Shown: positions 8,756 through 44,400, counted from the stretch's first letter. The stretch is 64,000 nt of DNA from Candidatus Omnitrophota bacterium (GCA_016206685.1 JACQRB010000014.1:9152-73151), one strand, 5' to 3'. Numbers and translations: made by a program. The notes: generated by a model from the sequence alone, not told the origin.

Positions 8756-9873
8756 CGGACCGGGCGCTGCGGCAAGTTTTAGTGCTGATCATCGCCACCC
8801 TCATCGGCCTGGGGTGCGTGGCGGTGTATTCCACGACGGCGATCATGGCGCATGAGACCTATGGGTCCAGCCTCCACTTCGTCGTGACGCACCTCTTGGC
8901 CGTTGCCATTGGGCTGGGACTGAGTCTGGCCGTCCTGGCCATTCCGTATCCCCTCCTGCGGGGCAGCGCCAAGTGGCTGCTCCTGGTGAGCGTGGTGCTG
9001 TTGGTCCTGGTGTTGGTGTGCGGCCTGCAGGTGGGGGGCGCGCGTCGCTGGTTTCGGCTGTGGCACGTGAGCATTCAGCCGTCGGAATTCGCGCAGCTGG
9101 CGCTGGTGATCTACCTGGCTGACTTCCTGGCGCGCAAACAGGCCGTCGTCGAGCGGTTTCGGGACGGCTTTCTGCCTCCGGTGTTGGCGACGGGGATCAC
9201 GGCGGGCCTGGTGCTGCTCCAGCCGGATCTGGGGACGGCGATCGTCATGGGGGCCGTGGCGATGTTGCTGCTCATGATGGCGAAGGCGCGCTGGCAGCAC
9301 GTGGGATGGCTCACGGTGCTGGGGGCCGTGGCGCTGGCGGTGCTCATCGGCGCCGAGGGGTATCGGCGCAGACGCATGCTGGCGTTCCTGAATCCGTGGC
9401 AGGATCCAGCCGGCGTGGGATTTCAAATTCTCCAGTCCTACGTGGCCTTTGCCAATGGCGGGCTACCGGGGGTGGGGATCGGCGCGTCCATGCAGAAACT
9501 GTTTTATCTCCCCGGCGCTCACACCGATTTCATTTTTGCGATCGTGGCGGAAGAGCTGGGGCTGATCGGGACGACCGCGGTGCTGGCCCTCTTCGCGCTG
9601 TTCGTCGGCTGCGGCATCCGCATGGCCTTGGGCGTCGAGGATCCGTTTAACAAGTATCTGATCTGTGGGTGCGTGGGGCTGGTGGGTCTTGAAGCGATCA
9701 TCAACGTGGCGGTCGTCACCGGCTTGCTGCCCACGAAGGGACTCCCGATGCCCTTGGTGTCCTACGGCGGGACGGCGATGGTCAGCAATCTCTTGGCCTG
9801 CGCGCTGATTCTCCATGCCAGCCGCCGACGCCCGTGCGGCGTGCGGAGTGCGGCGTGCGGAGTAGATTCGTAA
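8752..9873 (+). CDS. ftsW: SEDS-family peptidoglycan polymerase FtsW
   Basis: About 10 TM segments with IQPSEFAQLALVIYLA, PDLGTA and THTDFIFA..EELG blocks. The last roughly 12 codons are encoded by the left arm of a heptamer repeat. Confidence 0.9.
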   Translation: MTDRALRQVLVLIIATLIGLGCVAVYSTTAIMAHETYGSSLHFVVTHLLAVAIGLGLSLAVLAIPYPLLRGSAKWLLLVSVVLLVLVLVCGLQVGGARRWFRLWHVSIQPSEFAQLALVIYLADFLARKQAVVERFRDGFLPPVLATGITAGLVLLQPDLGTAIVMGAVAMLLLMMAKARWQHVGWLTVLGAVALAVLIGAEGYRRRRMLAFLNPWQDPAGVGFQILQSYVAFANGGLPGVGIGASMQKLFYLPGAHTDFIFAIVAEELGLIGTTAVLALFALFVGCGIRMALGVEDPFNKYLICGCVGLVGLEAIINVAVVTGLLPTKGLPMPLVSYGGTAMVSNLLACALILHASRRRPCGVRSAACGVDS

Positions 9874-11062: not shown

Positions 11063-12434
11063 CGGCAAGCAGTTGCACTTCCTCGGCATCGGCGGCATCG
11101 GGATGAGCGGGCTGGCCCGCATCTGTCATGAGCGCGGCTACGCCGTCAGCGGCTGCGATGTGAGCGAGGGGCTGTCCCAGCGCCTCCTCCAGCAAGCCGG
11201 GATTCCTGTCGGCATCGGGCATCATCCCAGCCATCTCACGCATCAGGTCGGCCTGGTCGTCTATAGCTCAGCGGTGTCACCGCGCGAGCCTGAGCTGGTT
11301 GAGGCGCGCGCGCGGGGAATCCAGGCCGTGAGCCGCGGCCGGCTCTTAGCCGAGTTGGCGTCTGGCGCCAAGCTCGTGGCCGTCGCGGGCGCGCATGGCA
11401 AGACCACGACCTCAGGGATGGCCGCCCAGCTCTTGACGCAAGCGGGATGGGATCCGACGGCGGTGGTGGGCGGGCAGGTGCGCTCGCTGGGCAGCAACGC
11501 GCGCAACGGCCGCGGCCGCTACTTCGTGGCGGAGACGGATGAGTCGGATGGCTCCTTTTTGCTCCTGAAACCGTCGGTGGCCATCGTGACGAATATCGAT
11601 CGCGAGCACCTGAATTACTATCACACCTTTGAGAACCTGATCGCCGCGTTTCGGCAATTCGTGGGGCAGGTCGAGCCGGGCGGCATGCTCATTCGCTGCG
11701 AGGACGATCCCATGGTGCGGCTGCACCTGCCGCGATACCCGCATCAGATCAGCTATGGGCTCACCGCGCAGGCCGACGTGACCGCCGAGGCGATCCAGCC
11801 GCGCGGCTGGGGAGGCGAATTTCTCGCGCGCTACCAGGGGCAGCAGCTGGGCTCGTTTCGGCTGTGGGTCCCGGGCCGCCACAACGTGCAAAACGCCCTG
11901 GCCATCATCAGCTTGGGGCTTGCGCTGGATCTGCCGCTGGCGCTGATCCGGGAGGCGCTGGATGCCTACCGAGGCACCTCCCGGCGGTTTGAGCTGTTCC
12001 AGCTGTCGCAGGATGTCTGGTTTGTCGAGGACTACGCGCATCATCCCGCGGAGATCCGCGCCACGCTGACGGCCGATCCGTTCGTCGGACGCCATCGCCT
12101 GGTGGTGTTTCAACCCCATCGGTTTTCCCGGACGAAGCTGCTCGAGCAGGAGTTTGCGCGCTGCTTCGAGTCGGCCGACGGGCTCGTCATCACGGATATC
12201 TACCCGGCGTTCGAGGCCCCCATCCCCGGCGTGTCGGGGGAGCGGGTGGCCACCCTGATCAAGGCGCAAGGGCACCCGTGCGTGCGCTACGTCCCGCGTC
12301 CCGAACTCTCACGATACCTCGCGCATGTCATTCAGCCTCAGGACACGGTGTTTTTCCTGGGAGCAGGCGACATCGGAGAACTGTGCCATGAGCTGGCCAC
12401 CCACTGGCGTCCGCCGAGCGGAATCGCTCGCTAA
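11055..12434 (+). CDS. murC: UDP-N-acetylmuramate-L-alanine ligase (MurC)
   Basis: Contains HFLGIGGIGMSGLA, AGAHGKTTTSGM and DYAHHPAEI. Confidence 0.9.
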   Translation: MLNGKQLHFLGIGGIGMSGLARICHERGYAVSGCDVSEGLSQRLLQQAGIPVGIGHHPSHLTHQVGLVVYSSAVSPREPELVEARARGIQAVSRGRLLAELASGAKLVAVAGAHGKTTTSGMAAQLLTQAGWDPTAVVGGQVRSLGSNARNGRGRYFVAETDESDGSFLLLKPSVAIVTNIDREHLNYYHTFENLIAAFRQFVGQVEPGGMLIRCEDDPMVRLHLPRYPHQISYGLTAQADVTAEAIQPRGWGGEFLARYQGQQLGSFRLWVPGRHNVQNALAIISLGLALDLPLALIREALDAYRGTSRRFELFQLSQDVWFVEDYAHHPAEIRATLTADPFVGRHRLVVFQPHRFSRTKLLEQEFARCFESADGLVITDIYPAFEAPIPGVSGERVATLIKAQGHPCVRYVPRPELSRYLAHVIQPQDTVFFLGAGDIGELCHELATHWRPPSGIAR

Positions 12435-14291: not shown

Positions 14292-15083
14292 ATGGCAACT
14301 CGTCGTCGAACGATCCGTGGCGTGCTTCCCCGGCTGGTCTCCACGCTCATGGCGGGCGTGCGCTGGACCATGAGGCATCCACGCGGGCTGATCGCGCTGG
14401 GGGTGGTCCTGGCCTGTGGCTGGACGGCGTGGCGGTCGGCCACCACGAGCGACGCCTTTCGCATCACCGACGTGCGCATTCCAGCCGAGAGCCATCTGAG
14501 CGTCCCGGTTTCCTCTCTGAAAGGCCGGAATCTCTGGACGGTGGACCTCAAGGCGCTCGAAGCGGACCTGAAAGCGCAACGGCCCCACCTCAAACGCGTG
14601 CGGGTCATCCGGATCTTGCCGCGCACGCTTGGGCTGGAGGTGGTGGAGCGCGTGCCGGTGGCCCAGCTCTTCCTGGGTGGCTGGCATCCGGTGGATGCCG
14701 GCGGCTACATCCTCCCGCAAGCCAGCTCCGCGCCCCTGGGGCAGTTGGTCCTGCTCAAAGGCATCGACAGCCCCAAACAGCCGCTGAAAGTCGGGCAAGC
14801 CAACGCCAACGAACGGTTGAGCAGGGCGCTGCAGATCGCGGAGCAGCTGCATCGCTCCCCGCTGCTCGCGGGCCATCGGCTCACCACGGTTGACGTCGCG
14901 GATCCGGCGCAGCTGACCTTCGTGATCGACGGAGACGTGGAAATTCGCTGCGGCAACGACACGCAGCTCGCCAGCCACTTGCGGCGCCTGCGCGCGGTGC
15001 TGCAGCAGGTGGCCAAGCACGGCCTGGCAATCCGCTACATTGATCTGCGGTTTTCAGACCCGGTGATCGGCCCGCGAACATGA
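14292..15083 (+). CDS. ftsQ: Cell division protein FtsQ (POTRA domain)
   Basis: N-terminal TM followed by a POTRA-like segment (FRITDVRI...LWTVDLKALEADLKAQRPHLKRVRVIRILPRTLGLEVVER). It sits in the ddl-ftsQ-ftsA position. Confidence 0.75.
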   Translation: MATRRRTIRGVLPRLVSTLMAGVRWTMRHPRGLIALGVVLACGWTAWRSATTSDAFRITDVRIPAESHLSVPVSSLKGRNLWTVDLKALEADLKAQRPHLKRVRVIRILPRTLGLEVVERVPVAQLFLGGWHPVDAGGYILPQASSAPLGQLVLLKGIDSPKQPLKVGQANANERLSRALQIAEQLHRSPLLAGHRLTTVDVADPAQLTFVIDGDVEIRCGNDTQLASHLRRLRAVLQQVAKHGLAIRYIDLRFSDPVIGPRT

Positions 15084-15192
15084 TCCCACCACCTGCCTCT
15101 CAGCTTCCGGCTGGCGCACTCGCGCCAAGCTGGATTGTTGTGGTCACAGCGAGTGCGCGGCCAGCCCGTGGCTGGCCGAGGCAGGTGGTGGG
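15084..15192 (+). repeat. Structured intergenic element, copy B
   Basis: Same outer arms as copy A (15085-15099 / 15178-15192) and the same central hairpin. The 3' inner hairpin differs in sequence but still pairs (ggccagcc/ggctggcc versus gccccgcc/ggcggggc). It lies between the ftsQ TGA and the ftsA ATG. Confidence 0.85.
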
Positions 15193-16371
15193 ATGACCAC
15201 CAAACCCCTGGTCGTGTTGGATATCGGCTCCACCAAGGTCGCCTGCGCGGTCGGTCGCAGCCCCATCGTGCTGCGACCAACCGAGCAGGCCACCTGTGAG
15301 GTGATCGGGACGGGTGTGGCCTCCTATCCGACGCTCAAGAGCACGTGGCCGTGCGACCAGGCGCTGTTAGCCAGGACCATCGAGCAGGCCCTGGAGGAGG
15401 CGCATCTGGACACCTGGCCGGATCGGGCCATCGTCATCCTCACGCATCCTGCGCTGTCCCATCGAGCCGTGACGGCTCAACTGGATCTGGCTGATGAGCC
15501 GGTGACGATCCGCGGGCGGGACCTCGAGCGGCTGCACGCGCAGGCCGTCAGTCAGGCGCTCGAAGTGGATCGCGAGCCGCTGTTGCTGGATCCCTTGGGA
15601 TATGCGGGCAACGGGTTCGACGCGGCCGGCGATCCGCGGGGGCTGGTCGCGACTCGCGTCCACGGACGATTTCAGTTGATCGGGATCCCGATGGCGGTCA
15701 AACGCGCCGTCTTGCAGGCCCTGGACGCGGTCGGCCTTGAGTTGGACCGCGTGGTCTACAGTCTCCAGGCGGTCGTGGCCGCGTGCGTGGAAGAGTCGTG
15801 GTGGTCCAAGCGCGTGCTGCTGGTGGATCTGGGCGGCTGCTGCACGGATCTCGCCCTCTGGGACAACGGGCATCTGGTGCGCAGCACCTCCATTCCCTGG
15901 GGCGGGATGACCCTCGTCGAGGCCATCGCCACCGACGCTCGCATGACGATGGACCACGCCCTGACGGCGAGCCTGGAGGGAGTGAGCAGTCCCCACCCGA
16001 TCGTCCGGAAGGTCTTCAACGAACAACTGCGACTGGTGGAATCTTCGCTTCGTCACCTCCTGGAAGAGACCGCGCATCCTGACCGGGCCATCGTCACAGG
16101 CCGGGGGGCGTTGATCGGGGGGCTGGTGGAATGGGTCGAGCAGGTCAGCCGCACCAAGGCCGTGCTGGGGCGCAGTCCCCTGGCGAAAGGCCTGGGCGAT
16201 CTTGGGCGCCAGATGGCCCTGAGTCCTTCGCTGGGCCTGCTCCAACGCATCTGCCAGACGGCCGCCGCCTCCTCACGCGGCGCGCCGAGCCGCGTCGGGA
16301 TTCAAGGATCCGGCCGGCTTATTGACCGCCTCCTTGCGCGCACCCGGTCCCTCCTGATCGAATACTTCTAG
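15193..16371 (+). CDS. ftsA: Divergent actin-like division protein FtsA
   Basis: Contains VVLDIGSTKVACAV, VDLGGCCTDLALW and GGMTLVEAIA blocks of the FtsA/actin ATPase fold. It sits after ftsQ but is quite divergent. Confidence 0.75.
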   Translation: MTTKPLVVLDIGSTKVACAVGRSPIVLRPTEQATCEVIGTGVASYPTLKSTWPCDQALLARTIEQALEEAHLDTWPDRAIVILTHPALSHRAVTAQLDLADEPVTIRGRDLERLHAQAVSQALEVDREPLLLDPLGYAGNGFDAAGDPRGLVATRVHGRFQLIGIPMAVKRAVLQALDAVGLELDRVVYSLQAVVAACVEESWWSKRVLLVDLGGCCTDLALWDNGHLVRSTSIPWGGMTLVEAIATDARMTMDHALTASLEGVSSPHPIVRKVFNEQLRLVESSLRHLLEETAHPDRAIVTGRGALIGGLVEWVEQVSRTKAVLGRSPLAKGLGDLGRQMALSPSLGLLQRICQTAAASSRGAPSRVGIQGSGRLIDRLLARTRSLLIEYF

Positions 16372-16394
16372 TTTTTCGGTTCGACTCCTCGTCG

Positions 16395-16424
16395 TTGACG
16401 CTGCCTTCCCGGCTGTGTTACAGT
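16395..16424 (+). promoter_or_regulatory. Putative sigma70-type promoter for yggS (possibly leaderless mRNA)
   Basis: TTGACG (16395-16400), an 18-nt spacer, then TACAGT (16419-24). The GTG start at 16432 lies only 7 nt after the -10 box. Confidence 0.4.
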
Positions 16425-16431
16425 ACCCCTC

Positions 16432-17094
16432 GTGTTGAGCGAGAACCTGGCGCGCGTCCGTGCGCGGATTCGACAAGCCTGCCACCGTTGCGGTCGCGAT
16501 CCCGCGTCTGTCACGTTGGTCTGCGTGACGAAGGGGATCGCGATTGAGGCGATTCAGGAAGCGGTGTCGCTGGGCGTGACGGATCTCGGGGAAAACCGCG
16601 TCCAGGAAGCGAAGCCCAAGCGTGCGGCGTTCGCGGCGGGAGAGGCCCGCTGGCATCTGATCGGCCATCTGCAGCGCAACAAGGCCAAAGACGCCATTGG
16701 GCTGTTTGGGGTCATCCATTCGCTCGACTCCGTGGCGCTGGCGGAAGAGCTTGAGCGCCAGGCCGCCAAGCGGCAGCAGATCCTCGACGCGTTGGTGCAG
16801 GTCAACGTGTCGGGTGAGGCCACGAAATTCGGCTGCACGCCTGCAGAGGCCCCGTCGCTGGCTCAAGCGATTGGCCGGCTACCGCATCTGCGATTGATGG
16901 GATTGATGACCATGGCTCCCTTCGTTGAAAATCCAGAACACGCTCGTCCGTATTTTCGTCGCTTGCGTCTCTTGCGTGAGGAGCTCTTGCGCTCATCACT
17001 GCTCTTATCAATGGGCATGTCCAACGATTTCGAAGTGGCGATTGAAGAAGGGGCCGATTTCGTCCGCATCGGCTCCGCCATTTTCAAGCCATGA
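16432..17094 (+). CDS. yggS: PLP-binding homeostasis protein YggS/YlmE family
   Basis: Contains LVCVTKG (Lys for PLP), HLIGHLQRNK, LVQVN and LSMGMSNDFEVAIEEGADFVRIGSAIF. Confidence 0.85.
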   Translation: MLSENLARVRARIRQACHRCGRDPASVTLVCVTKGIAIEAIQEAVSLGVTDLGENRVQEAKPKRAAFAAGEARWHLIGHLQRNKAKDAIGLFGVIHSLDSVALAEELERQAAKRQQILDALVQVNVSGEATKFGCTPAEAPSLAQAIGRLPHLRLMGLMTMAPFVENPEHARPYFRRLRLLREELLRSSLLLSMGMSNDFEVAIEEGADFVRIGSAIFKP

Positions 17095-17963
17095 AACCTC
17101 AATCACTCCGGAAGTTGCAGATCGGAGTGATTGGCGCAGGCAATATGGGCCGGGCGCTGATCCGGGGGCTCCTCCGAGCGGGTGTCCCGTCAGGACGCGT
17201 GGTCGTGGCGGAGGCCGATGCCTCGACGAGGCAGCGGGTGCGCCGGGCATTTCGCGTGCGCGGCGCGCTCTTGGATGAGATGGCGAGGCGCTGCGACGTG
17301 ATTGTCATCGCCGTGAAGCCCCAGGATCTGCCGCCGGTGCTGGATCAGCTCGCTCGCGGTCTTCGCGCGCGCGGGCCTGCCCGCCCCGGGTCTCGCGGGG
17401 CAGGCGGGCGTCAACCGCTCGTCATCTCGATTGCGGCGGGGGTGAGGCTGGCCGCGCTTGAGGGCAGGCTCAGCCGGGTGCCGGTGGTGCGCGTGATGCC
17501 CAACCTGCCGGCCAAGGTGGGCTGTGGGATTTCAGCCATGGCGACCGGCCGCGCGGTTGGCGCCTCGCATCTGGCCATCGCCAGAGCGATCTTTGGCTGT
17601 GTGGGAGAGGTCGTCGAGCTGCCCGAGCGGCTGTTTGATGCCGTGACGGCCATCAGCGGCTCAGGGCCGGCCTACTTTTTCCTCATCTTCAAGGCGTTGC
17701 GCGATGCCGGCTCGCGCGCCGGGCTGCCGAACGCGATCGCGCAGCGGTTGGCGCTTCGCACCGCCTCCGGCAGCGTCGCGCTGGCCGAGGCTTCGTCCCA
17801 ACCGCTTGAAGACCTGATCGCCCAAGTGGCCTCGAAGCGCGGGACGACGGAGGCGGCCTTGAACGTGTTTCGCCGGTATCGCTTGGCCGAGAGCATCCAA
17901 GCGGGTGTGGCGGCTGCCGTCCGGCGTTCACGCGCGTTGTCGAAAGAACATCGGGGACGTTGA
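17091..17963 (+). CDS. proC: Pyrroline-5-carboxylate reductase
   Basis: Contains IGVIGAGNMGRALI, AVKPQD, RVMPNLPA, SGSGPAYFF and SKRGTTEAAL. It carries a short R/G-rich insertion. Confidence 0.85.
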   Translation: MKPQSLRKLQIGVIGAGNMGRALIRGLLRAGVPSGRVVVAEADASTRQRVRRAFRVRGALLDEMARRCDVIVIAVKPQDLPPVLDQLARGLRARGPARPGSRGAGGRQPLVISIAAGVRLAALEGRLSRVPVVRVMPNLPAKVGCGISAMATGRAVGASHLAIARAIFGCVGEVVELPERLFDAVTAISGSGPAYFFLIFKALRDAGSRAGLPNAIAQRLALRTASGSVALAEASSQPLEDLIAQVASKRGTTEAALNVFRRYRLAESIQAGVAAAVRRSRALSKEHRGR

Positions 17964-23577: not shown

Positions 23578-24577
23578 CGAAGCCCGTCTGCGGATCGATC
23601 GCTATCTGCTGCGGCATCTGCCTCAGGGCTTCTCCAGAACGATCATCCAACGCGCCATTCGCGGGGGCGCGATCACCATCGCCGGCCGCGCGCTCAAGGC
23701 GCATCGCCGGCTGCGAGCCGGCGAGACCGTCGTGGCACGCGTGGCCGGCCCGAGCGCCGGTCCCGATCCCCAGACGGTCGTGCCTGAGCCCATGGCGCTT
23801 GCCGTCGTGTATGAAGATGCGCACGTGCTGGTGGTGAATAAGCCCCCACGCCTCGTGACGCACCCGGCACCGGGCCATCCCTCCGGGACGCTGGTCAACG
23901 CCATCGCCTGGCACCTCTCTCAACATGCGGAATGCGGAACGCGGAATGCGGAACGAAGTGCGTCCACTCCGCACTCCGCACGCCGCACTCCGCACCTACC
24001 CAGGGCGGGAATCGTGCATCGGCTCGATCAGGATACCTCCGGGCTGTTGGTCGTCGCCAAAACGGCGCTGGCGCTGCGCGAGCTGGCCAAGCAGTTGAAA
24101 GCCCGCACCATGAGCCGCCGATACCTGGCGCTTGTCGAAGGGCATGTCCCTGTTGACGAGGGGACGATCAATGTCGGCGTGGGGCGTCACTTGACGCACC
24201 GGAAGGAGATGGCGGTCCGCTACCTCGGCGGCCGTGAAGCGGTCACGCATTATCGCGTGTTGAAACGCTTCAGTCTCTCGCTTGCCTACACGCTGCTCGA
24301 GCTGCGGCTGGAGACGGGGCGGACGCATCAAATCCGGGTACACCTGGCCCACCTTGGGTATCCCGTCCTGGGTGATGCGCTCTACAGCCGCCGTTCAGCC
24401 GGCTCCTGGAACGCGCTCGGCATCGCGCGGCAACTCCTGCATGCCTATGCCGTGCGGTTCATGCATCCGGCGACGCATCAACCACTCGAGCTGAGCGTCG
24501 GCCTCCCGGTGGATATGCAACACTGGCTTGATGGTTTTGATGCGCGGGCAGCGGTGGCCGTGAAAAGGAGGAGGTAG
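23543..24577 (+). CDS. rluD: 23S rRNA pseudouridine synthase RluD family, carrying an in-frame repeat insertion
   Basis: An S4 domain N-terminus is followed by VVNKPPRLVTHP, GIVHRLDQDTSGLLVVAK and TGRTHQIRVHLAHLGYPVLGD. The heptamer module at 23925-23997 encodes about 25 extra aa just before the catalytic HRLD block. Confidence 0.9.
   Translation: MAQTYQFVVGPDEARLRIDRYLLRHLPQGFSRTIIQRAIRGGAITIAGRALKAHRRLRAGETVVARVAGPSAGPDPQTVVPEPMALAVVYEDAHVLVVNKPPRLVTHPAPGHPSGTLVNAIAWHLSQHAECGTRNAERSASTPHSARRTPHLPRAGIVHRLDQDTSGLLVVAKTALALRELAKQLKARTMSRRYLALVEGHVPVDEGTINVGVGRHLTHRKEMAVRYLGGREAVTHYRVLKRFSLSLAYTLLELRLETGRTHQIRVHLAHLGYPVLGDALYSRRSAGSWNALGIARQLLHAYAVRFMHPATHQPLELSVGLPVDMQHWLDGFDARAAVAVKRRR
23925..23997. 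repeat. Heptamer tandem-repeat hairpin module inside rluD
   Basis: atgcgga atgcgga acgcgga atgcgga, a 13-nt spacer, then actccgc actccgc acgccgc actccgc. The total length keeps the rluD frame and introduces no stop. Confidence 0.9.
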
Positions 24578-27001: not shown

Positions 27002-28003
27002 ATGAGATCGCGGATGCGTCGGGGCGTGGGGCCACTGTGCGTGGGGATCGCGGCGCTGGCGCTGGCGGGATGCGAGCGGTTCCCGTGGGAAAGCGGCGGG
27101 GGATCGAGCGCCAAGCCCGCCGCAAGCGCGCCCGAATCAGCGGGGCCGCCCCCTGTGCCGTTTGTGCCGGAGCAGGAAACGGTGGCGAAGGTGAACCAGA
27201 CCCCGGTCTCGACGACCGATGTGGAGCTCGCCCTCTCGGAGCTGAAACGCCTCATGCAGGCGTACCAGCAGACCTGGGAGCCGTTGCCGGTGGACGACAC
27301 CCCGGACCGGCTGGACCTGCCCGACGTGGTGAACAATTTGGTGGACTCGGAGCTCAGGACGCAGGATCTCCTGGCTCGGGGCTTAAGTGCGGACGCCAAG
27401 CGCCGCTGGACGTATGTCCAACGGAGTTTCTATTCGCAGGAATGGGACCGATGGCAGCGGGAGCGCGCCCTGCCCGCCGACGAGGAAGTCCACCAGTTCT
27501 ACGAGCAGAACAAAGCGGGCTTCTCGGAGCCGGAGCGCATCCGGGCGAGCCAGGTCGTCATGGACACGCTGGCAGAAGCGGAAGCGGTGCGCTCGCAGGC
27601 GGTCCAGGGAGCCGTCTTCTCCCAGCTCGCCCGTGAGCGGTCCGTCGGGGCGGGCAAGGAGCAGGGGGGAGACATCGGCTGGCATCTGCGGGCGGTGGAC
27701 AAGGAACGGTTGCGGTTGATGGGCCAGCCCTCGCCGGAGCAGGTGTTCTTCCCGCAGCTGGAGCCCGTCGCCTTTGCGTTGGAGGTCAATCAGGTGAGCC
27801 AGCCGGTCAAGGGACCCGACGGCCGCTACTACGTCATCCAGTTGCAGGAACGCAAGTCCGCCCGCCAGCAGACCGAGCTGGAAGTGCGGGACGCCATCAA
27901 GGAACTTCTGACCCTGCAACAGGTCCAGCGCCAACTGGAGCAGTTGCGCCAGAAGGCGCAGGTGGAGCGGTTTGGGGAACGCCTGAACGCGGTGAAGCAG
28001 TGA
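27002..28003 (+). CDS. PpiC/parvulin-type peptidyl-prolyl isomerase lipoprotein (SurA/PrsA-like)
   Basis: A lipobox LALAGC sits near the N-terminus. A parvulin block follows (IRASQVVM...ARERSVGAGKEQGGDIGW...GPDGRYYVIQL). Confidence 0.75.
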   Translation: MRSRMRRGVGPLCVGIAALALAGCERFPWESGGGSSAKPAASAPESAGPPPVPFVPEQETVAKVNQTPVSTTDVELALSELKRLMQAYQQTWEPLPVDDTPDRLDLPDVVNNLVDSELRTQDLLARGLSADAKRRWTYVQRSFYSQEWDRWQRERALPADEEVHQFYEQNKAGFSEPERIRASQVVMDTLAEAEAVRSQAVQGAVFSQLARERSVGAGKEQGGDIGWHLRAVDKERLRLMGQPSPEQVFFPQLEPVAFALEVNQVSQPVKGPDGRYYVIQLQERKSARQQTELEVRDAIKELLTLQQVQRQLEQLRQKAQVERFGERLNAVKQ

Positions 28004-28130
28004 TCCCCCCACCTGTTGGGCTTCGCCGCCACCAGTCTGAGACGCGACCGAAGGCGAAGCGGTCGCTGTCCCTGCGGCATTCCTTGCGTCGTGACAGCGA
28101 CCGGCCTTTGGCCAACCAACAGGTGGGGGG
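28004..28130 (+). repeat. Structured intergenic element, copy C (same architecture, different sequence)
   Basis: The outer 15-bp arms are ccccccacctgttgg (28005-28019) / ccaacaggtgggggg (28116-28130). Inner hairpins are gcttcgcc/ggcgaagc, ggtcgctgtc/gacagcgacc and ggcc/ggcc. It lies between the PpiC TGA and the cpaB ATG 28131. Confidence 0.8.
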
Positions 28131-29009
28131 ATGATCCCGTTGAGCGCGCCGGTCAAGAAATTCCTCCCCCTGATCTTTGCCGTGGTGATGGGGCTGCTGG
28201 CGGTCGGCTTGGTTCGTCGGTACCTCGGCCAGCAACGCCGGGCGTTGGAGCTTGAGCGTCAGCGGCTCATGGTGAATTACCAGGATCCGGTCGAGGTGGT
28301 GGTGGCGGCGAAGGACCTCCCTGCCGGGGTCACGTTGGAGCCGGCGCATTTGACGCTCGCCAAGGTCCCCGAGCGGTTCATGCAGCCCTATGCCACCCGC
28401 ATGCCGCAGCCACTGGTGGGCATGGTCACGGGCGCCCCCATCGCCGAAGGGGAGCAGGTCTTGCTCAACAAAATCCGCCGCCCGGAAGACGTTCCAACTA
28501 ATGCGACACTCTCCGATCTCACCCCCAAAGGCAAGCGGGCGGTCACCGTCTCGGTGGATATCATCACCGGCGTCGGCGGATTCATTCAGCCCGGCGATAC
28601 CGTGGACGTCCTCTGGACCTTAAAACTGCCCGCGGCAGGAGGGCAAGATGGCCAGGTGGTCACGTTGACCTTGTTCCAGGATGTCCCGATTCTCGCGGTG
28701 GCGCACGAGTTCCTGGGGCAGGGCAAGCGACCGGTGAAACCTGCTGAAGCGGAACACACGGTGACGCTCGCGTTGAGCCCGCAGGAAACCGCCTTTCTGC
28801 TCTTTGCGAGGGAGCAGGGACGGATTCAGCTCAGCCTGCGCTCCCAGTTGGATGGCGATGCGCAGGTGACCGTCGCCCCGGCGAGCATCAACACGCTGAT
28901 GGAGCAACTCCTGGGCAGTCAAGCCGGGGCGCCGACGAAAGCCCCTCGTCAGGTCGAAGTCTACAAGGGGCTCAAGCGGGACGTCGTGGTGCTCTCGGAA
29001 CAGCAATGA
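28131..29009 (+). CDS. cpaB: Flp pilus assembly protein CpaB/RcpC
   Basis: An N-terminal TM is followed by a SAF-like segment (VVVAAKDLPAGVTLEPAHLTL..VP) and an RcpC-like C-terminal domain. Confidence 0.8.
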   Translation: MIPLSAPVKKFLPLIFAVVMGLLAVGLVRRYLGQQRRALELERQRLMVNYQDPVEVVVAAKDLPAGVTLEPAHLTLAKVPERFMQPYATRMPQPLVGMVTGAPIAEGEQVLLNKIRRPEDVPTNATLSDLTPKGKRAVTVSVDIITGVGGFIQPGDTVDVLWTLKLPAAGGQDGQVVTLTLFQDVPILAVAHEFLGQGKRPVKPAEAEHTVTLALSPQETAFLLFAREQGRIQLSLRSQLDGDAQVTVAPASINTLMEQLLGSQAGAPTKAPRQVEVYKGLKRDVVVLSEQQ

Positions 29010-33194: not shown

Positions 33195-33318
33195 CCGTGA
33201 GGCCGAGAAAGGCAAACTCGCCGAAAGGCGGGGTCGCAAAGCTTCGGGTCTTCACTCTCTGAACACACGCTGTGGGAGGCGTGTGGCGTTCTCGGGGAGC
33301 AGATAGCCGGGCTGCCGA
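33195..33318 (+). promoter_or_regulatory. c-di-GMP-I (GEMM-I) riboswitch aptamer
   Basis: AGGCAAACUCGCCGAAAGGCGGGGUCGCAAAGCUUCGGG aligns almost position-for-position with the Vibrio Vc2 aptamer core GGGCAAACCAUUCGAAAGAGUGGGACGCAAAGCCUCCGG (GNRA loop, GCAAAGC bulge). A second helix ends ...CGGGGAGCAGAUAGCCGGGCUGCC, compared with CCGGUAGGUAGCGGGGUUACC in Vc2. Confidence 0.78.
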
Positions 33319-33338
33319 ATAGGCGGACCGGTTTTTTA
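33307..33338 (+). terminator. Intrinsic terminator forming the riboswitch expression platform
   Basis: The stem ccgggctgcc / ggcggaccgg (one mismatch, one G-U) is followed by TTTTTT. Its 5' arm overlaps the 3' end of the aptamer. Confidence 0.65.
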
Positions 33339-33365: not shown

Positions 33366-33566
33366 ATGGCTCTTCATATGATTGTATTAGTTATAGTAAA
33401 TGTCGTTAGGCGGAGCAGGACAAGCGGGCAAGCGATGATCGAGTACGCGATCCTCTTCGCGGTGATCGCGGTGCTCACCGTCATCGGCGTGACGACCTTC
33501 GATGACTCGGTCAAGACCGCCTTGCAAGGCTTCTTCAATGCGGCAGCCAACAAGATCGCCAAATAA
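33366..33566 (+). CDS. flp: Flp-family pilin (short, classical type), paralog 1
   Basis: Leader ...RRSRTSG then QAMIEYAILFAVIAVLTVIG. This is the G/xxxxEY prepilin motif with a hydrophobic helix and a short tail. The exact start is uncertain because the 5' region is AT-rich. Confidence 0.75.
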   Translation: MALHMIVLVIVNVVRRSRTSGQAMIEYAILFAVIAVLTVIGVTTFDDSVKTALQGFFNAAANKIAK

Positions 33567-33567
33567 A

Positions 33568-33635
33568 ATGCGGAATGCGGAATGCGGAATGCGGAATGTC
33601 AATCGCCACGCCGCACGCCGCACTCCGCACTCCGC
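33568..33635. repeat. Heptamer tandem-repeat hairpin module between pilin 1 and pilin 2
   Basis: atgcgga x4 (33568-33595), a 12-nt spacer, then acgccgc x2 plus actccgc x2 (33608-33635). Its first ATG is the in-frame candidate start of pilin 2. Confidence 0.9.
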
Positions 33636-33801
33636 ACTTGGAAAGGGACAGGCGGTGCTGGAATACGCCGTCCTGATTGGGATCGTCGCCGCGGCGCTCA
33701 TCGCCATGCAGCTCTACGTCCGGCGATCCATCCAGGCGAACCTCAAGGTGCTGGAAGACCAGGTGAACGCGGAAGCGGTGAAACCTGTACTCGTCCAGTA
33801 G
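33568..33801 (+). CDS. Flp-like pilin, MQxYxxR subfamily, paralog 2
   Basis: ...GKG then QAVLEYAVLIGIVAAALIAMQLYVRRSIQANLKVLEDQV. The leader peptide is encoded by the heptamer module, and the start could be 33568 or 33589. Confidence 0.7.
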   Translation: MRNAECGMRNVNRHAARRTPHSALGKGQAVLEYAVLIGIVAAALIAMQLYVRRSIQANLKVLEDQVNAEAVKPVLVQ

Positions 33802-33876
33802 ATTAGTACGCAGAACTAACCGCGGTCTTCGCAGTCGCTCTGCGGTTTCCGCGGTTGCAAAGGGAGGGGAGACAGC

Positions 33877-34092
33877 ATGAAGAAGAGGCGACTGGTTACT
33901 GGTTACTGGTCACTGGTCACTACCAGAGGGCAGAGCACGCTGGAATACATCCTGGTGCTGGCTGCCATTATTGCCGCAATCGCGATCGCGGCGGGCACGC
34001 TCATTAAACCGGCGGTGACCAAGACGATGAACGACACCAAAACGGTGATCGAGGACGCGACAGGGAAGCTCAAGGACGGGCTGAGCCTGTGA
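33877..34092 (+). CDS. Flp-family pilin (short type), paralog 3
   Basis: SD gggagggg precedes the start. The leader MKKRRLVTGYWSLVTTRG is followed by QSTLEYILVLAAIIAAIAIAAG. The leader contains a 4x heptamer tract (33892-33926). Confidence 0.8.
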   Translation: MKKRRLVTGYWSLVTTRGQSTLEYILVLAAIIAAIAIAAGTLIKPAVTKTMNDTKTVIEDATGKLKDGLSL

Positions 34093-34127
34093 AGGGCGCG
34101 AGCCCGACGGGAGGAGGTGAGCAGACG

Positions 34128-34490
34128 ATGACGCGCAGGGGCATGGGAGGACAGTCCACGGCGGAGTACGTCATCCTCATCAGCGTGGTGCTGGCGGCGA
34201 CGGTCGCCATGCAGATGTACGTCAAGCGCGGATTGCAGGGCAAGGTCAAGGACGTGACCGATAACGTGGGCTTTGGCCTGAAGGACGCCGGCTTCACGGC
34301 GCTGACCAACCAGTACGAGCCTTACTATGCGGTCTCGGACTTCAACGTCAGCCAGAAGCAGAGCACCAAGACCAGCGTGACGGACGGCTACAAGGTGAGC
34401 CGCGTGACCGATCTCGATGAGACGAAGCGGACCGGGGTGTCCAAGCAAGAGGTGGACCTCAGCAAAGACAATCAGTGGCTCGCGCAGTAA
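34128..34490 (+). CDS. Flp-like pilin with extended C-terminal domain, paralog 4
   Basis: SD GGAGGAGG precedes the start. MTRRGMGG is followed by QSTAEYVILISVVLAATVAMQMYVKRGLQGKVKDV and a tail of about 80 aa. Confidence 0.8.
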   Translation: MTRRGMGGQSTAEYVILISVVLAATVAMQMYVKRGLQGKVKDVTDNVGFGLKDAGFTALTNQYEPYYAVSDFNVSQKQSTKTSVTDGYKVSRVTDLDETKRTGVSKQEVDLSKDNQWLAQ

Positions 34491-34497
34491 CACGCAC

Positions 34498-34881
34498 ATG
34501 GCGAAGGGGGTGAAGGTGACAATGAGCAGGCTGACAGGGCGACGCGGGCCCCGTAGGACGTTTGTCCAACGGGGCGGGCAGAGCACGGTGGAGCTCGCCG
34601 TGCTGGTTGCCGTGATTACGGGGGCGCTCCTGGCGATGCAGATTTACGTCAAGCGCGGCGCGATGGGCAAGCTCCGGGACGCCGCGGACCAAGCCGGCGA
34701 GCAATTCACGCCGTTGAACACCACCTCCGAATTCACGGTCACCAGGAACAGCGCCAGGACGGAAAAGACCGAGGCGACCGGACTGACGACGGCGACCCTC
34801 ACGCAAGATGACCAAACCCGCACGGGAGCGGAACAGGTGACCACGCGGCTCGATGAGGAAAAGCTCTTCAAGCAACCATAA
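34498..34881 (+). CDS. Flp-like pilin with extended C-terminal domain, paralog 5
   Basis: ...FVQRGG is followed by QSTVELAVLVAVITGALLAMQIYVKRGAMGKLRDAADQAGEQF. The alternative start is ATG 34522. Confidence 0.8.
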   Translation: MAKGVKVTMSRLTGRRGPRRTFVQRGGQSTVELAVLVAVITGALLAMQIYVKRGAMGKLRDAADQAGEQFTPLNTTSEFTVTRNSARTEKTEATGLTTATLTQDDQTRTGAEQVTTRLDEEKLFKQP

Positions 34882-35299
34882 GCGCGTTGCCGCTTGCGCC
34901 GCGCAGTCCGTGACGGAATACGCCGTCCTGATCGGGCTGCTGACCGCCGCGGTGCTCGGGATGCAGCTCTACCTCAAGCGCGGCATCCAGGCCGGCGTCA
35001 AGGTGGCGGCGGACCAGATGAGCCCGCACGCCAACGACCCGACCGGAGAGAAGGCGCAGGTTGATGGCATGCGCTACGAGTCCGGCGAACGGAGCCAGGC
35101 CGTCGTCGCCACGGGCAGCGTCTTGGAGCGGAAGTCGGCGGCGCGGACGCTGCGCCAGCGGACCGCCAACATGACCGCCACCACAGGCGGCGGGGTGCAG
35201 CGGCAGATTGCCACGGATACCGCCGCCACGTCGGGCGTCCTGCCGGAAGGGGGAAGTGGGGTGGCGTCTCGCTCGGAGGTGGTGGTGGATGTGCGCTAA
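34853..35299 (+). CDS. Flp-like pilin with extended C-terminal domain, paralog 6
   Basis: ...ACAA is followed by QSVTEYAVLIGLLTAAVLGMQLYLKRGIQAGVKVAADQM. Ala replaces Gly at the -1 position. It overlaps the previous gene by 29 nt. Confidence 0.7.
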   Translation: MRKSSSSNHKRVAACAAQSVTEYAVLIGLLTAAVLGMQLYLKRGIQAGVKVAADQMSPHANDPTGEKAQVDGMRYESGERSQAVVATGSVLERKSAARTLRQRTANMTATTGGGVQRQIATDTAATSGVLPEGGSGVASRSEVVVDVR

Positions 35300-35636
35300 G
35301 CGCGGGCAAAGTCTGGTGGAATACGCCGTCTCCCTGGCGGTCATCATCGCCGCGCTCCTCGCCGTCCAGATCTACCTCAAACGGGGCGTGGCGGGCAAGC
35401 TGCGCACCGCCGCGGATTCCATCGGGGAGCAGTACGCCCCCCGGCAGACCACCTCCAGCCTCATCTTCCAGACCCACAGCGACACCGTCACCGAGTCCAA
35501 GCTGGAAAAGGACAAACTCATCGGGGGCGGCAAGAAGGCGGATGTCATGGTCACCACCACGACGATCAACGATGAGACGACGCAACGCACCGGCACGGAA
35601 ACCGTGGACTCCCTCGGCACCGACCTCTGGGACTAA
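35289..35636 (+). CDS. Flp-like pilin with extended C-terminal domain, paralog 7
   Basis: SD ggaggtgg precedes the start. MCAKRG is followed by QSLVEYAVSLAVIIAALLAVQIYLKRGVAGKLRTAADSIGEQY. Confidence 0.8.
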   Translation: MCAKRGQSLVEYAVSLAVIIAALLAVQIYLKRGVAGKLRTAADSIGEQYAPRQTTSSLIFQTHSDTVTESKLEKDKLIGGGKKADVMVTTTTINDETTQRTGTETVDSLGTDLWD

Positions 35637-36660: not shown

Positions 36661-36664
36661 CCCA

Positions 36665-36925
36665 ATGCGGAACTTAGCTCGGACACTCCGCACTCCACAC
36701 TCCGCACTCCGCATGCGGAGGGGTCAAGCATCGCTGGAAATGACCGTCGCGCTCATCGGGGCGCTTCTTTTGTTGTTCGGTAGCTTAAAAGTTTTCTTAT
36801 GGATCAATGAACGGCTGGTGAAGCGACAGGTCAGCTATGAAGACACGCGGGTAGCCGCTGGGAGTCAGGATTCCCTGAAGCTGTGGGAGGAACCCACGGA
36901 GCCGCTCAAGATCTTCAATGAGTGA
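36665..36925 (+). CDS. Small TadE-like pseudopilin
   Basis: ...MRRG is followed by QASLEMTVALIGALLLLFGSLKVFLWINERL. The leader is encoded by the heptamer module at 36665-36719. The start is 36665 or 36713. Confidence 0.65.
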   Translation: MRNLARTLRTPHSALRMRRGQASLEMTVALIGALLLLFGSLKVFLWINERLVKRQVSYEDTRVAAGSQDSLKLWEEPTEPLKIFNE

Positions 36926-39483: not shown

Positions 39484-39662
39484 CCCAGCGGGGGGGTCAA
39501 ACGGCAGTGGAATACGCCGTCTTGATCGTGGTCGTCGTGGCGGCGCTGCTGGCGATGGCGGTGTACGCCAAGCGCGCGCTGACGGGGAAATGGCGCGAGG
39601 TCGGCGACACCTTCGGCTACGGCCGCCAGTATGAACCGGGTGCAACAGCAGTGAGTCAGTGA
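39474..39662 (+). CDS. Flp-like pilin, paralog 8
   Basis: MAMTQRGG is followed by QTAVEYAVLIVVVVAALLAMAVYAKRALTGKWREVGDTFGYGRQY. Confidence 0.8.
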   Translation: MAMTQRGGQTAVEYAVLIVVVVAALLAMAVYAKRALTGKWREVGDTFGYGRQYEPGATAVSQ

Positions 39663-41456: not shown

Positions 41457-44400
41457 ATGCGCATTGACCGCTGGCTCCAACTGAAACGCACGAAGGCGTT
41501 CTGCATCAGCCTGGCGATGCTCTTCGCCGCGGAGCAGTGCGTCTGGGGCGCGGACCTCAACCTGCTCCACACCCTGCAGCTCTCCGGCGAGCAGCAGCGC
41601 CAGCTCGACCAGGCGCTCTCTGCCGCGGTCCTGACCATCTACCAAGACCTCTACAGCCGCGAACCCTCTTCCGAAGAGCTGCGTGAGGCGCTGGAGTTCC
41701 TGCGCCGCTCGCCCCAACTGGCTCACTTGGTGGAACGGCTCAGCCAATCCCCGGAATCCCGCTGGAGACTCCGCCAGCTCAACCCCGAGCGGATCAAGCA
41801 GCGCAAGGCGGAAGCCGCCCAGATTTCGCAAGCCGTCAGCCGCACCGTCGGCGGCTTCCTCCGCGACGTATTGCACTCATCACTCATCACTCATCACTCA
41901 TTACTGGTCATTACACCCACCCTCACCCTCCAACCTGCCCCGATAGTTCTGGCACAACTTGACGAGCCGGCAATTCAGTCCATCGAATCCTGGCTCCGCC
42001 AACCCGATACCCTGTGCGCCAACTGCGCCCCCAACGCCCTCGCTCCCTTACTGGGGATGGTCGGCGTGAACGTCTCCCGTGAGACCCTCACCGCCCAGGC
42101 GTTTCTCCTGGACTACCTCAGTGGGAATGCGGAATTCGGAATACTCCGCACTCCGCACTTCGAAGGTCCGTTGTTCATCAGCATGGATACCGTCCAACGC
42201 CTCGCCCAAGCGTACGGCTTGACGCTGAACGCCGTCGAGCTCACCAGCGACGAGCTCCTCCTGCTGAAGTACCCCATGATTGCCGCCCTGGACCTCACGC
42301 AGGACGGACAAGCCGACCACTACGTCGTCGTGCAGGACGCCAATGAGGCGCGGGTGGTCTACTACGAATCCGACGGCACGCGCGAATCCCTGCCCACGCA
42401 TGAGTTCCTACGGCTCTTCACCGGCTTTGCCCTCGTGGCCTCAGCCGACTCGTATGGGCGACTCTTGAATCAATCCCAAACGAGGACCATCGCTGGCGGA
42501 AGGTCCCGCCGGCAAGAGCTTCCGGACCTCGACAAACTCTTTGAGGAGCCCTCGCTTGGCGACACCTTGATGTCGGTCGGGATGAGCCTTGCCTCGGCGT
42601 ATTTTTCGCCGATGGGCTCCGGTGATTTCCTGTCGAATTTCGGCAGCTCGGCGCTGTACTCCCAAGTCAGCCAAGGCGCCACCCACCTCGCCGTCCGCAC
42701 CTTCGGCTGGAGTCCCGGGGCGGCTCAAATCTTCGGCTATGGCGTCACCGGCGCGTTGAGCGGAGCGACCACTGGCGCCTATCAGTCAAATTACCGGTGG
42801 AACAGCGACTCGTGGCTAGGGAGTACCATGGGGGGGTGGTTTGACATTCAGGCATATCCCATCTCCACAGGGGCAGCCATGGGAGCCCTCAAGGGTGCCG
42901 CGATCGGCGGGGGCTCGCTCCTCGCCTACGAAGCCCTCAAGGACACCAGCTTCTACGAGAGCAATCCCTTTGTGGCACGGCAGATGACGTCGCTGGTGGG
43001 AGGGGCAGGGGGCTACCTCGGCTTTTACGGTCTGACCTCGCTGGCCGGCATTGATCCCGCAATCACCGTTTCGAAAAGTTACGTCGATGCGCAACAGGAC
43101 TTCAAACTCGGGAACGCGACGCTGGCAAACCTCACCCTCATTCCGGAAGCCTTTGAAAAGCAGGGGGGCTATCAGGTGTGGGCCTCGCAGGCATTTGGGG
43201 GCGCTCTTGGCGGGTTGTACCTGGCATTCTCCGATCCTGCCTTCCAGACCAGCCTGGTGTCTCAGGGCATCGGGCTCGCCGCTGAGTACGCCGTACCCAA
43301 CTCCAGATATTCCCGCCTCTTGGGTCAAAGTGCTGGCTCCCTCGGCGCAGCCGCCTTGGGGTATGGAAGCGTCGGGTGGCCTGAGGTCCTCAGGGACGCG
43401 GCGATCTCCGGTCTCTCATCACTCGCCCTACAATCCCTGGGCGGCGGATTCGACCGCAACACGGGCAAGAACAACTGGGGGCTTACGCCCGTCCAGATGG
43501 CGGCGGTCGAGTATGCGGGGACCACCCTCCTGCGCGCGACATGGGACAGCGGCGCGGGATGGTACAGGGGGTCGAATGATGCTCTGTCGTCCACCTTCAC
43601 CGACTCCCTTGGTCGCAACCTCAGAAACCTCTCCCTGGACTATGCGACCTTCGGCAGGACCACCCCGGCTTGGACGCGCGGGGCAGGCGGCTGGGTGGAG
43701 GCGCAGTACATCGAGAAGCTCGCCCAGGTGTCCGGCATCGCCAACTTCAAAGCCAATGCCGACCACGCCATGCAAACCACCGGTCAGTCCTGGAATCAAT
43801 TCGTCAAAAGCGGTCGGCTGGATGACATCCTGCCCTCTCCGGCATTCTCCCTGGTGGACTATACGGCTTCCACCCTCCACTCCGCCGCCGTTGAGAACCT
43901 GGCGTTTCCGATGAGAGACTTTGCCTCACGGATGCTGCCGCAAACGCCGCCTCAGTCAATTCCCTTTAAGGATGGTACGATCGGCAAGCTCCAGGTCGCC
44001 GGAGCCACCTTCGGTCCTCCTGGAGGATCAGACCTCGTGGTGAACAGCTACGCGCTCTACAAAGACGGTCAGGAGCTTGGTCAGTATGTTGGAGTTGACC
44101 CGAAAACAGGCACGATCCGCGTCGCTGGCGACATCGAGGGCGATGCTGTTCAGTACTATGATGACCAGGGCAAGCTGACCGCAGCCATCACCGAGACGGG
44201 CATCCTGACGCCCCAGGTCGCCGGCGCGACCTTTCGTTCGCCAGTAGGGACTGACACCTTCACCGTTGACACCTACGAGCTCCGTGACTTCAGCGGCACC
44301 CCGTTGGGGCAGTTCATCGGCTTCGATGCCCAGGGCAAAGTCCGCGTCGCCGGTGACCTCGAAGGCGCCCAGGTGCGGTACTTCGATCAGGCTGGTCAGC

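Follow-up and report, generated by a model that had tools for sequence, protein, structure and literature searches.

The described system closest in kind to the repeat family analyzed here is MIRU, the mycobacterial interspersed repetitive units (Supply et al. 1997). As summarized in later accounts, MIRU insert at start codons and carry an internal ORF coupled at -4 spacing (PMC12548453; PMC3184786), and they are reported to have tetranucleotide direct repeats, inverted repeats that are imperfect, GC-rich repeats in their interior, and both filled and empty sites (PMC3184786). Measured against these summaries, our family likewise consists of short repeats inside operons (about 40 to 100 bp in MIRU), has empty and filled sites with short direct repeats flanking a start-codon insertion, carries an internal ORF overlapping its neighbors at -4 (ATGA; 11 of 12 sites here) in an arrangement that would preserve downstream expression, contains GC-rich internal inverted repeats, and can form tandem arrays (loci L007 and L008). 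The same summaries set MIRU apart by their host, Actinobacteria instead of the Omnitrophota-like genomes found here; by imperfect inverted repeats, whereas ours are perfect over 16 to 17 bp and close a four-way junction; by a tetranucleotide duplication, whereas ours is TGA (3 bp); and by variable-number tandem arrays, as opposed to the single units of the 64-kb window studied here. Given the different host phylum, common descent with MIRU is presumably unlikely.

MITEs such as Correia/CREE, ERIC, Nezha, Chunjie, and RUP resemble the family in being small, lacking a transposase, carrying terminal repeats and a target duplication, occurring in multiple copies, forming very stable RNA stem-loops, and being co-transcribed within operons. 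Our repeat has the features by which a MITE is recognized, namely, small size, terminal inverted repeats, a target duplication evident from filled and empty sites, and dispersed multiple copies. However, Correia duplicates TA and Chunjie 9 bp, and the MITE descriptions reviewed contain no start-codon targeting, no in-phase bridging ORF, and no rebuilt ATG and Shine-Dalgarno-like motif. Rickettsia palindromic elements (RPE) are likewise palindromic mobile repeats, constrained in length and frame so that host expression survives, but they lie inside coding sequences and are translated in frame as part of the host protein, whereas the present elements are intergenic with a separate relay ORF. With IS200/IS605-derived PATEs and REP/BIME (RAYT) elements the family shares structure-conserved subterminal hairpins, a short specific target, and orientation specificity; those elements lack long terminal inverted repeats and target duplications, both of which are present here, and REPs carry GTAG. 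Assignment to REP/BIME (a 20- to 40-nt imperfect palindrome with 5' GTAG) was rejected on account of the 16-bp repeats, the TGA duplication, and the missing GTAG, and attC, Correia, and REP signatures were absent on reading the sequence. The kind is already known (MITE/MIRU-like), and the family itself, as an Omnitrophota repeat or a TGA-specific MITE, is without prior description in Rfam or in the literature searched.

The window, that is, the whole 64-kb stretch of DNA analyzed here, contains a dcw cluster from mraW to ftsA, with yggS-like and proC genes directly after ftsA (15193-17963). No ftsZ follows ftsA in this cluster, and the ftsA-yggS-proC order is also found on a relative's contig. 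Homologs of proteins encoded in the window are annotated as Candidatus Omnitrophica, and an exact-sequence query with its FtsQ returned no entry. One copy of the repeat, copy B, fills exactly the gap between the ftsQ stop codon and the ftsA start codon (Table 1), and its right terminal repeat includes a Shine-Dalgarno-like AGGTG 5 nt upstream of the ATG. The sequence-only reading of this DNA had reported copy B together with a copy A, which lies at the ftsI/murE junction; the copy B sequence was as it described, and its true end is the terminal A at 15193, one base past the 15192 it gave. The flanking (A/G)TGA ... TGA, the open mini-ORF, and the exact 3-nt difference between A and B were not part of that reading, and neither was a third copy, C, which brings the total in the window to three. 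Four occurrences of the arm 15-mer were counted in the window, where 0.32 would be expected (0 of 100 shuffles). A match of CAGGTGGTGGGG at 1501-1512 was discarded as a chance match inside an ftsL-like coding sequence, without a partner arm. Copies A and B each fold into a closing stem (17 bp in both) plus three hairpins, at -91.6 kcal/mol for A (z -9.4) and -85.5 kcal/mol for B (z -9.0), with 0 of 200 shuffles as stable in either case, and the fold buries the Shine-Dalgarno-like motif and the ATG.

Table 1. Positions of the repeat copies and their parts, and of a second repeat class, in the 64-kb window
Feature	Position	Strand	Sequence	Remark
Copy B left ATGA	15080-15083	+	ATGA	TGA 15081-15083 is the ftsQ stop and the left target duplication copy
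Copy B mini-ORF	15080-15196	+	MIPPPASQLPAGALAPSWIVVVTASARPARGWPRQVVG, then stop	38 codons
Copy B mini-ORF start	15080-15082	+	ATG	Original ftsA start; empty site cgaacATGAccacc in L010
Copy B, whole	15084-15193	+	TCCCACCACCTGCCTC-t-CAGCTtccGGCTG-GCGCACTCGC-25 nt-GCGAGTGCGC-GGCCAGCCcgtGGCTGGCC-GAGGCAGGTGGTGGGA	
Copy B left terminal inverted repeat	15084-15099	+	TCCCACCACCTGCCTC	
Copy B 5' hairpin (hp1)	15101-15113	+	CAGCT tcc GGCTG	One U.G pair inside
Copy B central hairpin	15114-15158	+	GCGCACTCGC / GCGAGTGCGC	Stem around 25-nt variable interior
Copy B 3' hairpin (hp3)	15159-15177	+	GGCCAGCC cgt GGCTGGCC	Module unlike that of copy A
Copy B right terminal inverted repeat	15178-15193	+	GAGGCAGGTGGTGGGA	Ends in the A of the ftsA ATG
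Copy B right ATGA	15193-15196	+	ATGA	ATG 15193-15195 is the ftsA start
Copy B right TGA	15194-15196	+	TGA	Right target duplication copy and in-phase mini-ORF stop
Copy A, whole	3366-3478	+		
Copy A left repeat	3366-3381	+		
Copy A hp1	3383-3395	+		
Copy A central stems	3396-3405, 3431-3440	+		
Copy A hp3	3441-3462	+	GCCCCGCC ggtg GGCGGGGC	
Copy A right repeat	3463-3478	+		
Copy A left target duplication	3363-3365	+	TGA	
Copy A mini-ORF	3362-3481	+		39 codons; ATG 3362-3364 overlaps ftsI stop TGA 3360-3362 by one base
Copy A mini-ORF stop	3479-3481	+	TGA	Overlaps murE ATG 3478-3480
Copy C, divergent subfamily	28004-28131	+	TCCCCCCACCTGTTGG / CCAACAGGTGGGGGGA	Inverted repeats; from a relaxed search of the window
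Copy C inner hairpins		+	GCTTCGCC..GGCGAAGC, GGTCGCTGTC..GACAGCGACC, GGCC ttt GGCC	
Copy C mini-ORF	28000-28134	+		44 codons, GTG start; left TGA 28001-28003 is the upstream stop
Copy C right TGA	28132-28134	+	TGA	Overlaps downstream ATG 28131-28133
Heptamer repeats	23922-23995, 33565-33643, 36664-36720, 9828-9863, 42143-42171			Second, unrelated class

A PpiC/SurA-like gene lies on one side of copy C, and a CpaB-like gene follows it on the other. Elsewhere in the window, a c-di-GMP-I-GGC riboswitch (33202-33320, plus strand; Rfam RF03167, 69.3 bits) is located upstream of six paralogous short genes (33645-35383, 39494-39574) with conserved 81-nt 5' segments, which look like Flp-type pilin N-termini; this suggests that a Flp/Tad pilus locus is controlled by c-di-GMP. 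The second class of intergenic repeats, unrelated to the first, consists of three to four GCGGAAT heptamers, a short spacer, and three to four ACTCCGC heptamers. The two runs are imperfectly complementary. The mismatch in each heptad would be A.C on the plus strand and G.U on the minus strand, so that greater stability would be expected of an RNA hairpin from the minus strand.

The wider copy set was assembled by several routes. Two-arm pattern scans, in which 60 to 95 nt were allowed between the arms, were run on species-representative genomes and metagenome contigs. The former yielded three copies in two Omnitrophota MAGs (L001 to L003), the latter L004 (of the same sequence as L001), L005, and L006; MAG JAUYPJ01 carries two copies on different contigs. 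Searching a 5.8-billion protein set with the mini-ORF peptides as a concatenated query returned only the ORFs of tandem arrays, P0001 and P0002, which led to a three-unit array (L007) and a two-unit array (L008, 51 to 56% GC). An exhaustive profile search with the mini-ORF gave one true match, P0202, belonging to a relative of copy C (L015); its second match, an unrelated 1939-aa protein, was discarded. A further subfamily, sitting on a murE start (L013), was reached through a search for MurE homologs. Viral contig scans and plasmid BLAST recovered no copies. Overall, the window, the Omnitrophota MAGs, and the metagenome contigs provided 12 independent sites. Within the window the occupied junctions are ftsI/murE, ftsQ/ftsA, and ppiC-like/cpaB-like; the others are rpoB/rpoC, clpP/aminotransferase, hydrolase/GDPD, dehydrogenase/ppc (PEP carboxylase), ABC-binding protein/livH, polyprenyl synthase/tatA (the L007 array), L008, L013 (murE start), and L015 (an epimerase gene).

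The elements are about 98 to 128 nt long, with a terminal repeat core TCCCACCACCTG / CAGGTGGTGGGA and perfect terminal inverted repeats of 16 to 17 bp in copies A, B, and C, L001 to L006, L013, and L015. Counted as units, they measure 96 to 175 nt, contain a mini-ORF of 34 to 44 codons as their sole ORF, and are without a transposase gene. No autonomous partner or transposase with these inverted repeats was found by scan patterns spanning 60 to 95 nt between the arms, and no candidate gene for a mobilizing enzyme was seen in the flanks examined. In L004, a terminator-like hairpin beside an A-run (11903-11931; GTCCCCCCACCTG-cga-CAGGTGGGGGGAC) has as its stem the same 12-mer as the copy C inverted repeat, without an interior and without TGA flanks; it could be a collapsed element, a source of the repeat, or chance (roughly a few in a hundred by our estimate).

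Empty sites in close relatives identify the repeat as an insertion. In L010 to L012, whose FtsA is 88% identical, ftsQ and ftsA meet in the element-free overlap cgaacATGAccacc, and the filled site in the window reads cgaacATGA[TCCC...GGGA]TGAccacc. The TGA that is single in the empty site is present twice in the filled one, which defines a 3-bp target duplication, TGA. In L005, the element termini are C...G instead of T...A, a compensated change, and TGA still stands on both flanks; AT or ATGA as the duplicated target was rejected, since L005, L002, and copy C fit TGA only. Tandem units in L007 and L008 have a single TGA in common. The murE junction is element free in relatives with 81% and 83% identical MurE, where it reads ...ATGATGATGAcc and ...TGATGATGAcg, corresponding to the filled site in the window minus the element core. 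Extra TGA/ATG triplets were seen at element-free junctions, with gaccTGATGAcgATGacc at ftsQ/ftsA (L009, 6960-6985) and ATGATGATGA (L014, 726-735) and TGATGATGA (L016, 254-262) at ftsI/murE; those at murE may be excision footprints or products of triplet slippage.

These comparisons bear directly on the proposal in the sequence-only reading that the repeat is a "bridging" element in the leaders of murE and ftsA. It is instead an insertion, absent at the same junctions in close relatives. The broader idea of a conserved cis-regulatory RNA for ftsA and murE, be it a leader, a thermometer, an RNase site, or a riboswitch, would account for the very stable fold over the Shine-Dalgarno-like motif and start codon, for the covariation described below, and for the presence of two copies inside one cell division operon. 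However, it is largely refuted by the empty junctions, and a target duplication on the flanks and occupancy of unrelated junctions such as rpoB/rpoC, clpP, ppc, livH, and tatA speak against it as well. Rfam at gathering score over the whole window placed no family at the element, and with permissive settings the copy B region yielded only sub-threshold matches to miRNA-precursor hairpins. We regard regulation of this sort as extremely improbable. Copy B is probably one insertion of a non-autonomous, MITE-like repeat of Omnitrophota-like genomes, which would relay ribosomes from ftsQ to ftsA via its mini-ORF.

An (A/G)TGA stands on the left at all 12 sites, the flanking repeat being TGA, or ATGA at 10 of the 12, and at every site the downstream ATG is made up of the last A of the element plus TG. 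In L006 and L007 the upstream stop codon precedes the ATGA by 6 and 2 nt, respectively, which identifies the start codon, not the stop codon, as the target. The single-unit periods of 101, 113, 116, and 131 nt are all 2 mod 3, and the L008 pair (99 + 116) obeys this rule as a whole; as a consequence, reading from the left ATG or GTG leads in phase to the right TGA, which overlaps the downstream ATG. The sole exception to such a mini-ORF is the L007 triple array (120 + 120 + 178, total 1 mod 3), the ORF of which ends 17 nt inside tatA. Gene callers had annotated mini-ORFs with 4-nt overlaps on both sides in two cases (P0002 in L008 and P0202 in L015). All subfamilies but L013 have the AGGTG motif at a distance of 5 nt from the ATG; L013 also lacks PPP codons, so that neither feature is universal. 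A PPP-stalling leader peptide was considered and dropped, since L013 encodes PRP and PPP varies.

The point of entry of the element is thus the TGA within an (A/G)TGA start, often the ATGA overlap of two coupled genes, and this TGA is duplicated. Both neighboring genes are left intact, since the left TGA still stops the upstream gene and the terminal A plus TG rebuild the ATG. From comparative sequence, we propose that ribosomes terminating on the upstream gene, or starting at the old start codon, would translate the mini-ORF and in doing so would melt the very stable fold, giving access to the Shine-Dalgarno-like motif and the ATG hidden in it; they would then terminate at the ATGA and re-initiate on the real gene. 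The same logic has been put forward for MIRU. Translational coupling relayed across the insertion in this way would render the insertion nearly neutral, and translation together with tight folding might also shield the spacer from Rho and RNases.

Coupling could conceivably be achieved without translation of the mini-ORF, if a domesticated element used its closing helix to juxtapose the upstream stop and the downstream ATG for shunt-like re-initiation. In every copy the helix begins directly after the stop codon and its last base belongs to the ATG, and judging from the known ribosome footprint, a terminating ribosome would open much of the left arm and thereby free the right one. Yet the shunt leaves the open, in-phase interior without explanation, and in L006 and L007 the displaced upstream stops lie off the helix base. 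We consider it very unlikely and favor the relay through the mini-ORF.

Several observations on start-codon junctions are recorded here in their own right. The native, unoccupied murD/ftsW overlap in the window (8736-8755; gcAGGTGGgaagATGA) closely resembles the right arm of the element (gcAGGTGGtgggATGA), and the inverted repeat might imitate a ribosome-binding junction of this native type. The yggS/proC junction (17091) is another unoccupied ATGA. On the contig encoding P0085 (ENA ERZ27297570), the region from mraW to ftsL contains two called mini-genes (33 and 46 aa), chained by 4-nt overlaps from the first into the second and from the second into ftsL, and a 250-nt gap separates ftsI and murE; these look like further elements of the family in the dcw cluster of another relative.

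The orientation of the element relative to the genes is identical at all 12 sites, and a generic scan for TGA plus a 12-nt arm followed by the reverse-complement arm plus TGA retrieved family members only, on the gene-sense strand only. All 15 units have an open sense frame, compared with 7 of 15 for the same frame of the flipped element (hypergeometric one-sided p about 0.001, with units that are partly dependent). From a DDE transposon with identical ends, insertions in both orientations would be expected. With seven flipped units open, stop codons in the flipped frame explain the orientation bias only partly, and this brings strand-specific, hairpin-dependent mobility into consideration, either by an HUH/Y1 enzyme as in IS200/IS605-derived PATEs and REP/RAYT, or by a site-specific recombinase with a TGA core. 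If a folded single-stranded DNA four-way junction were the substrate, the hairpins would co-vary and the orientation to the ATGA strand would be fixed. Subterminal hairpins at both ends in every subfamily, the strict trinucleotide target, and sense and antisense folds of equal stability, as expected of a palindrome at the DNA level, agree with this, and so does the junction between the tandem units of L007 and L008, which is a perfect palindrome around TGA. On the other side, perfect repeats of 16 to 17 bp and a true TGA duplication are hallmarks of DDE cut-and-paste transposition, neither of which is found in IS200/IS605, and the GTAG-type REP signature and a candidate enzyme gene in the flanks examined are both missing. 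Such a mechanism of movement therefore seems unlikely to us.

The folded architecture is common to the family. In all 15 units an inverted-repeat stem closes three branches (z -4 to -11), and the GC-rich single units form a three-hairpin four-way junction at -67 to -92 kcal/mol. The divergent subfamilies (copy C, L013, L015, L007, and L008) have the same stem-plus-three-hairpin architecture with unrelated sequences. Across seven copies of the CTGCCTC subfamily (outer stem, hp1, and hp3), 99.5% of the cells are paired and six pairs are changed on both sides, a result reached by 0 of 500 shuffles, and slid controls are paired at 26 to 49%; among the 210 cells are two G.U pairs and one open cell. 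The invariance of the outer stem in this set is partly due to ascertainment, as the search patterns required both arms. In five copies, with the central stem included, all cells are paired and five pairs are changed on both sides (1 of 500 shuffles). By reading the sequences, three more compensated pairs each were found between copy C and L015 and between L013 and copy B. Loops and the central interior vary freely. Judged by these sequence comparisons, the internal hairpins are maintained by compensatory change, and stem-disrupting changes are not as common in this larger set as compensatory ones.

The differences between copies A and B, from which the sequence-only reading had argued, were found as it reported them. 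The outer arms, with 16-nt perfect terminal repeats, and the central hairpin are identical, including a 25-nt interior that is genome specific. The small 5' hairpin differs in two bases, one a stem C-to-T change giving a G.U-compatible pair and one in the loop. For the 3' hairpin, copy A has GCCCCGCC-ggtg-GGCGGGGC and copy B GGCCAGCC-cgt-GGCTGGCC, each with a perfect stem. An origin of this difference by stepwise compensation, however, is implausible, as three pairs, the loop, and the length (+3 nt) of hp3 are changed while the remaining roughly 90 nt differ by two bases. In addition, the hp3 arms of copy A are those of the L013 element, located at the murE site of a relative with 96% MurE identity; the hp3 type of copy B is common to L002, L003, and L006, and L007 unit 2 has a left arm similar to the hp3 left arm of copy A. 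The A/B difference is best read as one module replaced between family members through recombination or conversion with a putative donor. The replacement retained both the stem and the reading frame, the length difference being exactly one codon.

This raises the question of whether the compensatory pattern as a whole might be a mutational by-product, in which quasipalindrome template switching and gene conversion use one arm as the template for its partner. Correction of palindromes by template switching could yield the same covariation without selection. It would fit stems that are perfect and not merely stable, fold energies without strand bias, the replacement of an entire module between A and B, and the identity of the copy A hp3 arms with those of L013 at the same site. 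However, copying of arms alone is insufficient to explain why unrelated subfamilies keep the number and placement of the hairpins and loops of 3 to 4 nt, and indels that keep the reading frame show selection acting on the interior. We deem this origin possible but doubtful, and we continue to favor hairpins maintained by compensatory change within a ribosome-relaying insertion. The claim that conserved structure with diverging sequence reveals selection on RNA or single-stranded DNA structure stands in one part: the stems are kept, and the changes are compensatory across the larger set. A preference for RNA over single-stranded or cruciform DNA does not follow from it, since sense and antisense folds are on average of equal quality, without a consistent bias in minimum free energy or G.U count. 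Candidate roles of the internal hairpins are a compact mRNA spacer resistant to RNases and Rho, or a structure needed for mobility.

It is tempting to speculate about more unusual forms of the element, either a start-codon-homing, strand-specific element whose four-way junction, as single-stranded DNA or RNA, would be the substrate of an undescribed mobilization, or a domesticated device for strict coupling or shunting between essential genes such as ftsQ-ftsA and rpoB-rpoC. Strand-specific mobilization of the four-way junction would explain both the orientation bias at all 12 sites and the covariation of the hairpins. We judge either form to be decidedly unlikely, and the MITE-like insertion that relays ribosomes remains our preferred reading.

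Our analysis advises caution: when a palindromic mobile repeat shows covariation, this alone does not establish a functional RNA. For the annotation of Omnitrophota MAGs, it implies that "intergenic gaps" of about 110 nt within operons, "hypothetical proteins" of 30 to 45 aa with 4-nt overlaps, and spurious N-terminal extensions of downstream genes can be this element; P0003 and P0004, which are 16 and 22 residues longer than the FtsA of the window, come from element-free sites. The clean anatomy, with perfect repeats, a 3-bp duplication, and a rebuilt ATG and Shine-Dalgarno-like motif, makes the relay testable with reporters. If the proposed reading is true, the family would be a second, phylogenetically remote example of the MIRU strategy, in which a selfish start-codon repeat pays its way by relaying ribosomes.
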